Source: Escherichia phage PMBT16. From it: a DNA stretch of 64,000 nucleotides. Below, piece after piece: positions 44,555-44,671 of the stretch. Location of the stretch: the sequence record PP554575; one strand, written 5' to 3'. Position 1 is the stretch's first letter; every line of letters begins with the position of its first letter. A program made the position numbers and the translations under genes. The notes under the pieces are model-generated. The model was not told the DNA's origin. It searched no databases and was given only the letters and a program-made list of their open reading frames with translations.

Positions 44555-44671
44555 TTATAAGTACTCCGCATCGCATTCAGGGCAATGCCAAATAAAATCG
44601 TCCAGTGCCTTGCACCAACGAAGATTGCAACGACAACCACACTTGCAAATTTTATAAATACCTGATGACAT
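44555..44671 (-). CDS. small Cys-rich zinc-ribbon protein (38 aa)
   Basis: ATG 5 nt after AAGGAGGTG RBS; CKCGCRC...WHCPECD. Confidence 0.5.
   Translation of the reverse strand: MSSGIYKICKCGCRCNLRWCKALDDFIWHCPECDAEYL

Follow-up and report, generated by a model that had tools for sequence, protein, structure and literature searches.

A seven-cysteine mini-gene between nrdD and nrdG of Vequintavirus genomes, with a copy beside a DNA ligase gene in Vectrevirus podoviruses

A 38-codon ORF on the minus strand of an rV5-like Vequintavirus of about 137 kb, Escherichia phage PMBT16 (record PP554575; the 64,000-nucleotide stretch analyzed here is referred to as the window), is almost certainly a genuine protein-coding gene. 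Its product, which by translation is MSSGIYKICKCGCRCNLRWCKALDDFIWHCPECDAEYL, contains seven cysteines (positions 9, 11, 13, 15, 20, 30 and 33). The overall explanation that we favor, and regard as reasonably probable, is that of a mini-gene, portable and translationally coupled, that codes for a protein of the zinc-ribbon type, possibly directed at a host component. The gene is present in public databases and hence already known; what is new is that the ribonucleotide reductase (RNR) label attached to it is corrected, that the rV5 record is seen to annotate a wrong frame in its place, and that it behaves as a cassette across phage families. The main practical value lies in annotation hygiene, the 38-aa protein having spread as a “ribonucleotide reductase” through GenBank, RefSeq and PHROGs. 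There is no sign of a new kind of system.

Coding status and database record

The ORF lies in a gap flanked by larger ORFs of the minus strand, with 52 nt between it and the stop of an endonuclease-like gene upstream (Table 1). The sequence-only reading, which had placed it in this gap at 44555-44671 and quoted its product, is confirmed on these points by the ORF list and the translation; it had, however, counted eight cysteines where the peptide has seven. Upstream of the ATG, the 9-mer AAGGAGGTG at 44684..44676 is extended by the preceding T to TAAGGAGGTG, a perfect 10-nt Shine-Dalgarno sequence that is complementary at every position to the 3'-terminal 10 nt of the E. coli 16S rRNA. The spacer to the ATG is 4 nt, rather than the 5 that had been stated.

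Table 1. Features of the window at and around the seven-cysteine ORF
Feature	Coordinates	Strand	Remarks
38-aa seven-cysteine CDS	44555..44671	minus	ATG 44671-44669, TAA 44557-44555; member of phrog_20137
Shine-Dalgarno TAAGGAGGTG	44676..44685	minus	spacer to ATG 4 nt (CAGT)
GGAG in codons 35-36 (GCG GAG)	44564..44567	minus	RBS of the next gene where stop and ATG overlap (TTATGA)
Weak terminator-like hairpin in the CDS	44602..44618	minus	7 pairs, 3 of them G-U; “terminator” in the Murica record; judged incidental
nrdD (anaerobic ribonucleotide reductase, 712 aa)	45760..47898	minus	upstream neighbor in relatives without the endonuclease insertion
Free-standing homing-endonuclease-like gene	44724..45581	minus	T5orf172 plus DUF723/CapR/DUF4379 zinc fingers (Pfam, PHROG)
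34-aa ORF	44435-44539	minus	between the small ORF and nrdG; own RBS
78-aa ORF	44167-44403	minus	between the small ORF and nrdG
nrdG (radical-SAM activase, 157 aa)	43697..44170	minus	Pfam Fer4_12 and Radical_SAM

Neither the 38-aa ORF nor its Shine-Dalgarno sequence is decisive alone; the decisive evidence is comparative. ORFs of at least 25 aa number 69 per 4.5 kb around the small ORF, the Shine-Dalgarno 9-mer is observed once against an expectation of 0.56, and the combination GGAGG-N3-9-ATG is found 31 times in the window versus 11.6 expected (2.7-fold enriched). Pooled Nei-Gojobori counts over codons 11-38 of 13 distinct alleles, drawn from phage records and metagenome contigs, gave a pN/pS of 0.12 in the ORF frame (pS 0.48, pN 0.058), as against 1.14 in the sense +1 frame, which is that of rV5 gp109, 1.59 in the sense +2 frame, and 1.43, 0.25 and 2.25 in the antisense 0, 1 and 2 frames, respectively, the antisense 1 frame having its wobble positions in common with the ORF. 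Further, single divergent allele pairs differ by 10-12 synonymous versus 2-8 replacement changes (Fisher p 2e-6 to 2e-8), and variable sites at codon positions 1, 2 and 3 number 10, 3 and 18. All seven cysteines are invariant across the 13 alleles, with six of the seven Cys codons toggling between TGT and TGC. Indels comprise whole codons, namely CKC versus CKHC or CKDC together with N-terminal Lys/Glu-rich extensions, and the length of the protein across the family ranges from 36 to 54 aa. Purifying selection is strong on all but a few residues, with synonymous divergence close to saturation.

The Shine-Dalgarno sequence is likewise retained in all contexts. Most Vequintavirus alleles display the form (A/T)AGGAGGT(A/G)CAG(T/C)ATG, with weaker variants in a few of them, i.e., TAGGAGGCGCAGTATG in locus L006, TAGGAGA in L024 and AAAGAGG in L030, and in Vectrevirus a GAGGA within the upstream gene fills this role for the seven-Cys ORF. 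Conservation of the ORF and its RBS in related phages, to which the sequence-only reading had pointed as a check, is therefore borne out, with low pN/pS in the ORF frame only and a Shine-Dalgarno sequence in every context.

These data also bear on the notion that the segment does not code for this protein, being instead a terminator or a regulatory RNA in the nrdD-nrdG interval, or that the frame in use is that of gp109 or an antisense ORF. Such readings can point to a terminator annotated within the ORF in the Murica record, to the different frame (gp109) annotated in the rV5 record and to an antisense frame that remains open. However, the hairpin is weak, its T-tract is not conserved (in phage ACG-C91 it is gone while the protein is retained), and no RNA structure beyond that of shuffled sequence is found in the ORF region (folding z = +0.8). 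Terminator-like sites show no excess over shuffles (5 versus 3.4 +/- 2.1), and the terminator or structured-RNA reading was ruled out on the basis of these counts and the folding z-score. The gp109 frame has the pN/pS of 1.14 given above and is broken by stop codons in loci L025 and L030, whereas the value of the antisense 1 frame is as expected for a wobble-sharing shadow of the ORF, and the antisense ORF lacks an RBS and is opposed to all its neighbors; both were set aside on the frame-wise pN/pS. Taken as a whole, this group of readings is highly improbable.

The claim that the ORF is unannotated does not hold with respect to public data. It matches the HMM of phrog_20137 with E 4.1e-31, residues 1-38 aligning to profile positions 1-38 of 38, and a 100% identical protein is an annotated CDS in six relatives, namely naam (naam_181), inoa, naswa, nomine, A51.2 and WalterGehring. 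Many other phages have annotated CDSs for close variants, and YP6_00217 is another GenBank/RefSeq CDS of the gene. The phrog_20137 family is labeled “ribonucleotide reductase”, as are FFH2 gp178 (YP_009031017) and HMD-6 (XLV54066), while naam_181 and others carry the label “putative anaerobic ribonucleoside-triphosphate reductase”, and some records “hypothetical protein”. The gene was missed by annotation in phiWec193, ECP2303, FV3, Murica and ACG-C91, and in the rV5 reference record the wrong overlapping frame was annotated as gp109. The rV5 genome paper groups gp109-112 as reductase subunits and does not discuss the small ORF (PMC3606486). In terms of sequence, the phrog_20137 members and the annotated CDSs are the same gene as the ORF of the window, with no difference between them; it is the functional label that lacks support.

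The Vequintavirus locus, the podovirus copy and mobility

Over 2.2 kb surrounding the ORF, the window shares 99.1-99.4% identity with phages naam, A51.2, nomine, naswa and inoa. On the minus strand, the gene order in the window is nrdD, the endonuclease-like gene, the 38-aa ORF, the 34-aa ORF, the 78-aa ORF and nrdG, with phoH further downstream. Related loci were collected with NrdG as bait, and in every sampled Vequintavirus the seven-Cys ORF lies between nrdD and nrdG. The endonuclease-like gene, found in only 7 of 119 related records, is inserted upstream of the 38-aa ORF and downstream of nrdD, and its copy in the window has a frameshifted 5' end, with an 11-bp deletion relative to phage naam. 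Endonuclease genes upstream of the seven-Cys ORF come and go among relatives.

This traffic raises the option of a selfish or neutral passenger, i.e., a remnant of an endonuclease zinc finger or a co-conversion hitch-hiker with no phage function of its own. Endonuclease genes have a hot spot in the interval between nrdD and nrdG, and the upstream endonuclease has fingers of the CPEC/CPRC type. However, an intact copy is present in 120 of 121 records, and the gene is under purifying selection at almost every residue as described above, matches no Pfam finger family and is carried by a second phage family with no adjacent endonuclease gene. On account of these features a passenger is very improbable.

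The 3' junctions of the small ORF were compared across 16 loci, and two main arrangements are seen within Vequintavirus. In most relatives, including FFH2, FV3, YP-6, Murica, L006 and L024, the stop of the ORF overlaps the ATG of nrdG (TTATGA), and the GGAG of codons 35-36 functions as the RBS of the following gene; the Murica record annotates the nrdG RBS exactly at this GGAG. Codon 36 is GAG in all alleles, and codon 35 has G as its third base throughout. In the window and in rV5, the 34-aa and 78-aa ORFs intervene before nrdG, and the GGAG is vestigial in the window because the 34-aa ORF that follows has an RBS of its own. The NrdG alleles of the two arrangements are only ~52% identical, whereas the small protein is 92-97% identical between them.

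A tblastn search recovered 121 phage records with the ORF, 120 of them at >=80% coverage, and these comprise 119 Vequintavirus records and two records of ACG-C91. A word-indexed search of 5.8 billion proteins, for which the 38 aa were padded with 3 in-frame upstream residues, yielded only 6 close protein clusters, and an exhaustive HMM search of 1.84 billion representatives produced no further true relative; two extra matches of the HMM (P0049 and P0050) are low-complexity repeat proteins devoid of the Cys pattern and were discarded as spurious. The conserved motif has 0 matches in 185,579 species-representative bacterial and archaeal genomes and 0 in 5,426 complete E. coli genomes, and a motif scan of metagenomes returned Vequintavirus contexts only. 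Hence, this is a very small family, restricted to virulent phages of E. coli.

ACG-C91 is a T7/SP6-like podovirus of the genus Vectrevirus with a genome of 43.7 kb. Its copy of the protein shows 79% amino-acid identity at a pS of 0.65, and in this phage and four metagenome contigs the ORF is found between a DUF3310 “nucleotide kinase” gene and an ATP-dependent DNA ligase gene. As in the overlap arrangement of Vequintavirus, the stop of the podovirus ORF overlaps the next ATG. The DUF3310/ligase slot exists in at least four states within Vectrevirus: LL11 has no ORF there, ACG-C91 has the seven-Cys ORF, K1E and ten other records have a four-Cys ribbon ORF of unrelated sequence, and vB_EcoP_B has a Cys-free ORF of 57 aa. 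The homology between the Vequintavirus and Vectrevirus loci extends from the ATG to the TTATGA overlap, and therefore it is the bare coding sequence that moved. The gene has thus been transferred between two unrelated E. coli phage families, and provides a clear case of a strongly constrained mini-gene, subject to purifying selection, that was moved as a bare CDS between the lineages of a 137-kb myovirus and a 44-kb T7-like podovirus; the moved gene lands in a polymorphic accessory slot and provides the RBS of the gene downstream.

The K1E ORF in the same slot (MTCPNCGSEETEHVVMSDTYHFYFCHSCDTTIEEEEAV) resembles the seven-Cys ORF in its size of 38 aa, its insertion point between the DUF3310 and ligase genes, its ATGA-type overlap and its CxxC...CxxC arrangement. 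It nevertheless has only four cysteines and is unrelated in sequence, hhalign giving 37% and covering one knuckle only. It shows weak sub-threshold matches to Lar and ECs_2282-type ribbons and is confined to 11 Vectrevirus records.

Protein pattern and the putative metal module

Inspection of the alleles shows that the invariant residues are K7, C9, K10, C11, G12, C13, C15, N16-W19, C20, A22, L23, D24, D25, I27, W28, C30, P31, C33 and E36-L38. These include two cysteine pairs, the first of which has the form C9-x-C11 in the majority of alleles and the form CxxC in P0003, P0004 and L031, while the second, C30-P-x-C33, is unvarying; the conserved pattern is accordingly an invariant C-x(1,2)-C-G ... 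C-P-x-C. The knuckles lie at the ~10-25 residues from each other that are characteristic of zinc-ribbon pairs, although the CxC spacing of the first is atypical. His29 is replaced by Tyr in some alleles and is therefore not a ligand. On the basis of this pattern, the protein is likely a zinc-ribbon-type metal module in which C9/C11 and C30/C33 would most likely form the ribbon-type site. The remaining cysteines, C13, C15 and C20, represent a family-specific extra cluster that would possibly constitute a second metal site. Seven cysteines would allow one or two metal sites, and in the case of two tetrahedral ones a single bridging thiolate would be common to both.

AlphaFold2 models were built from two alignments, one of the family and a joint one that included a phage ribbon family of about 80 aa (see below), giving mean pLDDT values of 61.4 and 65.4. 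The resulting low-confidence models place strands at residues 6-8, 14-16, 21-24 and 27-29, which pair as two β-hairpins, and a helix from residue 31 that starts at the CPEC knuckle. A Foldseek search of the predicted structure against the PDB returned nothing at E < 5. The zinc ribbon proposed by the sequence-only reading is plausible in that the peptide fits the C-x(1,2)-C-G ... C-P-x-C module; given pLDDT values of 61-65 and no structural match, the term “zinc ribbon” rests on the sequence pattern.

Profile scans place the protein in none of the characterized families that were searched. The 38-aa ORF had no match in Pfam at E <= 1, the 38-aa and 53-aa variants had none in NCBIfam at E <= 10, including the Lar model TIGR03655, and the PADLOC defense and anti-defense models gave no match to the 38-aa ORF. 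It matches none of DUF723, CapR and DUF4379, whereas the upstream 285-aa ORF matches all three. Rubredoxin-type Pfam and NCBIfam profiles also gave no match, the peptide having 38 aa and a second knuckle without the Gly. A search of PDB sequences yielded as its sole match the knuckle of eL43, which is insignificant (E 0.77). In the literature, experimental evidence of translation, metal binding or a phenotype for the seven-Cys gene was not found, and searches on Vequintavirus transcriptomics and small zinc-ribbon phage effectors produced nothing relevant by title or abstract. A tryptic peptide of the product, ALDDFIWHCPECDAEYL, is diagnostic for the 38-aa protein.

Among the systems to which the protein may be compared is the above-mentioned family of ~80-aa phage zinc ribbons (P0007-P0047; L015:3221-3478), which has in common with it the scaffold C-x(1,2)-C-G ... 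(R/K)-W ... C-P-x-C-x-x-E-Y. C9, C11, G12, W19, C30, P31 and C33 of the seven-Cys protein align with the invariant CxxCG...CPxC of this family (hhalign probability 87%), and both occur in early or nucleotide-metabolism regions of phages. Unlike the seven-Cys protein, members of the ~80-aa family have only four invariant cysteines, two long insertions and a C-terminal helix, and they are generally not linked to nrdG. Homology between the two is plausible. Classical zinc ribbons and knuckles, such as eL43, Lar, Ogr/Delta and Com, similarly have two Cys pairs about 20 residues apart, and the C-terminal knuckle of the seven-Cys protein, IWHCPEC, is nearly identical to IWHCPKCG of eL43, the match not being significant. 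In the low-confidence models, the knuckles are placed on the predicted β-hairpins. In contrast to the classical ribbons, the first knuckle of the seven-Cys protein is mostly CxC, and its extra invariant cysteines 13, 15 and 20 have no counterpart.

A further comparison is to rubredoxin and SCIFF-type peptides, which are also small Cys-rich products encoded beside a radical-SAM gene and have a CPxC knuckle following an aromatic residue. The density of seven cysteines per 38 residues, immediately upstream of a radical-SAM gene, might suggest a RiPP precursor of the SCIFF/ranthipeptide type that is modified by the adjacent enzyme. However, the neighboring gene codes for an NrdG-type activase of 157 aa that has only one Fer4_12/Radical_SAM core and lacks the SPASM domain of a maturase, and the ORF also precedes the ligase gene in phages with no annotated radical-SAM gene. 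Additionally, the peptide is conserved over its whole length, lacking a leader/core pattern, and has no NCBIfam match even at E <= 10. The idea was rejected on the absence of SPASM, the absence of an NCBIfam match and the ligase-side copies, and its probability is practically nil.

The ribonucleotide reductase label and the role of the protein

The “ribonucleotide reductase” label in the databases is unsupported, and the protein is probably not an RNR component. A BLASTP comparison with the NrdD of the window gave E 0.35 over 12 residues, which is not significant; the C-terminal zinc ribbon of NrdD was considered as a source of the label and dismissed on this lack of significance. The 38-aa ORF belongs to neither the NRDD/Gly_radical nor the Fer4_12/Radical_SAM families, and its co-occurrence with nrdD and nrdG is not obligate. 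ACG-C91 has no annotated nrdD or nrdG, and in the podovirus contigs with the ORF beside the ligase gene no nrd gene is present within the ~5-kb stretches examined. Conversely, a NrdG homolog is found in 1,963 phage records, of which only about 120 have the ORF, leaving about 1,840 without it. In phi92, PVP-SE1, ukendt and T4-like phages nrdD and nrdG are adjacent with the ORF absent, and loci L004 and L005 lack it although their NrdG is 82-83% identical.

A weaker form of the RNR connection is that the protein acts as an accessory factor of the class III enzyme, in Fe-S/Zn loading, electron delivery to the activase or protection of the glycyl radical. It may, in this alternative, tune the anaerobic dNTP supply via the phage or host NrdG/NrdD. 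Such a role is consistent with the position of the ORF between nrdD and nrdG in all 119 Vequintavirus records, with the overlap of its stop with the nrdG ATG and the presence of the nrdG RBS in its last codons in most relatives, and with the unrelated phage contig L015, in which nrdG is immediately preceded by a zinc-ribbon ORF that may be related. Even the podovirus copy could in principle target the host NrdDG, E. coli possessing its own. Set against this are the absence of similarity to NrdD, NrdG or rubredoxin, the ~1,840 NrdG-encoding records that lack the ORF (among them the Vequintavirinae-like phi92 and PVP-SE1 and the loci L004 and L005), its location beside the DNA ligase gene in phages without annotated nrd genes, its lack of co-variation with the ~52% identical NrdG alleles, and the two other ORFs that separate it from nrdG in the haplotype of the window. 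Collectively, these make an accessory factor unlikely.

The L015 case merits separate mention. This 85-aa Cys-rich ORF directly upstream of nrdG gave hhalign values of 73-87% against the seven-Cys family, and was tried as evidence for a nrdG-linked family; however, the other contigs of the L015 family do not have it next to nrdG, and it was dropped as such. With its CxxCG...CPxC and no link to nrdG elsewhere, the family supports a common ribbon scaffold and not a connection to RNR. An RNR-related role would still accord with the nrdD-X-nrdG position itself, which is universal in the genus and often entails translational coupling to nrdG.

The sequence-only reading had further suggested a zinc-ribbon regulator of transcription or of a nuclease. 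Examples would be a modulator of the neighboring homing endonuclease, or a factor akin to Ogr/Delta or Com that binds RNA polymerase or DNA. Small zinc proteins with regulatory roles do exist. The N-terminal half of the protein is basic (K7, K10, R14, R18, K21), some alleles add a Lys/Glu-rich tail, and homing endonuclease genes lie directly upstream of the ORF in the window and in L024. However, most carriers, e.g., rV5, Alma, Murica and ACG-C91, have no adjacent endonuclease gene, and in FFH2 the HNH gene is found only inside the split nrdD and not next to the ORF. The protein shows no similarity to known regulator families. Further, the two carrier families depend on different RNA polymerases, ACG-C91 having its own, so that a shared transcriptional target is not obvious. 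Nothing in the results points specifically to a regulator of this type, the suggestion being a generic prior, and we consider it quite unlikely.

We return to the reading favored at the outset, that of the portable, translationally coupled mini-gene. According to this, the fold would probably be held by metal, through the ribbon site and possibly the extra cluster. The gene behaves as a self-contained portable cassette, the CDS alone being spliced in directly upstream of a gene of DNA metabolism: nrdG in all Vequintavirus genomes sampled, the ATP-dependent DNA ligase gene in a few Vectrevirus podoviruses. The last codons of the cassette furnish the GGAG RBS and its stop overlaps the following ATG, whereby it would be translated together with genes of nucleotide metabolism or replication. 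The protein could then be a small rigid binding module directed at a protein or nucleic acid of the E. coli host, in takeover or counter-defense, in lieu of a phage-specific enzyme.

This host-directed component, to which we give somewhat less than even weight, is suggested by two features: nearly all residues are constrained across two phage families that have the same host and different transcription and replication machinery, and the accessory slot that the gene fills differs in content among podoviruses that are nearly identical in other respects. A more specific version, which we put forward only as a tentative and rather doubtful proposal, is that of a portable host-directed effector built on an undescribed two-metal Cys7 mini-fold, which would be exchanged among unrelated E. 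coli phage families as a plug-in cassette carrying the RBS of the downstream gene. If its target were found, the protein would add one more small phage effector, and a putative compact Cys7 metal-binding scaffold.

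Mobile endonuclease genes and NrdG allele classes

Mobile endonuclease genes have a hot spot in the nrdD-nrdG region. In the relatives, HNH endonuclease genes split nrdD or adjoin it, as seen in phage FFH2 (L003 1..2437) and in two further related loci (L024 1922..2431; L030 199..672), and in the window a homing-endonuclease-like gene lies upstream of the 38-aa Cys-rich gene. The latter endonuclease-like gene is found in only seven of the 119 related Vequintavirus records, and the window copy is probably decaying, because it has lost 11 bp compared with phage naam (between 45613 and 45612), a deletion that frameshifts its first ~25 codons and therefore leaves a GTG-initiated ORF of 285 aa as the sole remnant. 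The strong intrinsic terminator just downstream of nrdD precedes this insertion.

On the other side of the 38-aa gene, NrdG falls into sharply distinct allele classes within the genus, with either at least 90% or ~52% identity to the NrdG of the window. The recombination boundary between these classes coincides with the stop codon of the 38-aa ORF; the final ~25 residues are common to both. Among the loci examined, the pair of 34-aa and 78-aa ORFs that separates the 38-aa gene from nrdG is confined to the haplotype with the window-type NrdG; the GenBank label of the 78-aa ORF, 'putative minor capsid protein', looks like a propagated mislabel. Additionally, the Vequintavirus NrdD carries an extra short C-terminal tail after the glycyl-radical domain, which includes a Cys-Cys pair (...VKHVGNVDCCPLSK in the window) and takes the variant forms ...YGSCGC and ...GDCCSIY among relatives.

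Features of the nrdD-nrdG region in the window
Feature	Position	Strand	Remarks
Promoter	43693..43664	-	Perfect sigma-70 consensus, TTGACA-18-TATAAT; just downstream of nrdG; corresponds to rV5 promoter P118
nrdG	43697..44170	-	Allele classes compared with the related loci L003, L006 and L024
78-aa ORF	44167..44403	-	phrog_3249
34-aa ORF	44435..44539	-	Very basic, MRKSIKKIKIKLLALKRKYKKLYGFIKWTFIGLS; equals rV5 gp110
Homing-endonuclease-like gene	44724..45656	-	T5orf172 with DUF723/CapR/DUF4379 zinc fingers; phrog_681
Intrinsic terminator	45748..45731	-	GAGAGCA-AGGA-TGCTCTC, then T9
NrdD C-terminal tail	45760..45800	-	

The Vectrevirus accessory slot and a larger zinc-ribbon family

In Vectrevirus, the accessory slot at the junction between the DUF3310 gene and the DNA ligase gene is polymorphic and occurs in at least four states (L025-L027, L045): it is empty in LL11, holds the seven-Cys ORF in ACG-C91, a 38-aa CxxC...CxxC ORF unrelated to the latter in K1E and 10 other records, and a Cys-free 57-aa ORF in vB_EcoP_B. 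In all three occupied states the insertion is seamless, with the stop of the ORF overlapping the ligase ATG. The K1E-type ORF shows weak, sub-threshold matches to Lar and to ECs_2282-type ribbons.

A further, uncharacterised phage zinc-ribbon family of ~80 aa comprises 41 clusters (P0007-P0047; exemplified by L015:3221-3478 on an unrelated phage contig), shares the invariant pattern CDRCG...W...CPxC...F, and is found on a diverse set of phage contigs, in their early or nucleotide-metabolism regions. This family is possibly a larger, distant relative of the 38-aa protein.

Labels in public records

The public records of rV5, Murica and ACG-C91 carry annotation errors at the 38-aa gene. In rV5 (NC_011041; L002 2436..2663) gp109 has been called in an overlapping, non-conserved frame; in Murica a terminator is annotated inside the CDS (L036 451..474), which itself is not called; and in ACG-C91 the seven-Cys gene is left without annotation (L025 ~878..987). 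Further, the host or organism labels of 18 GenBank 'Campylobacter phage' records (the MG0656xx series) look wrong: their stated host is C. jejuni, and they match E. coli Vequintavirus genomes with 96-98% identity in the region of the 38-aa gene.
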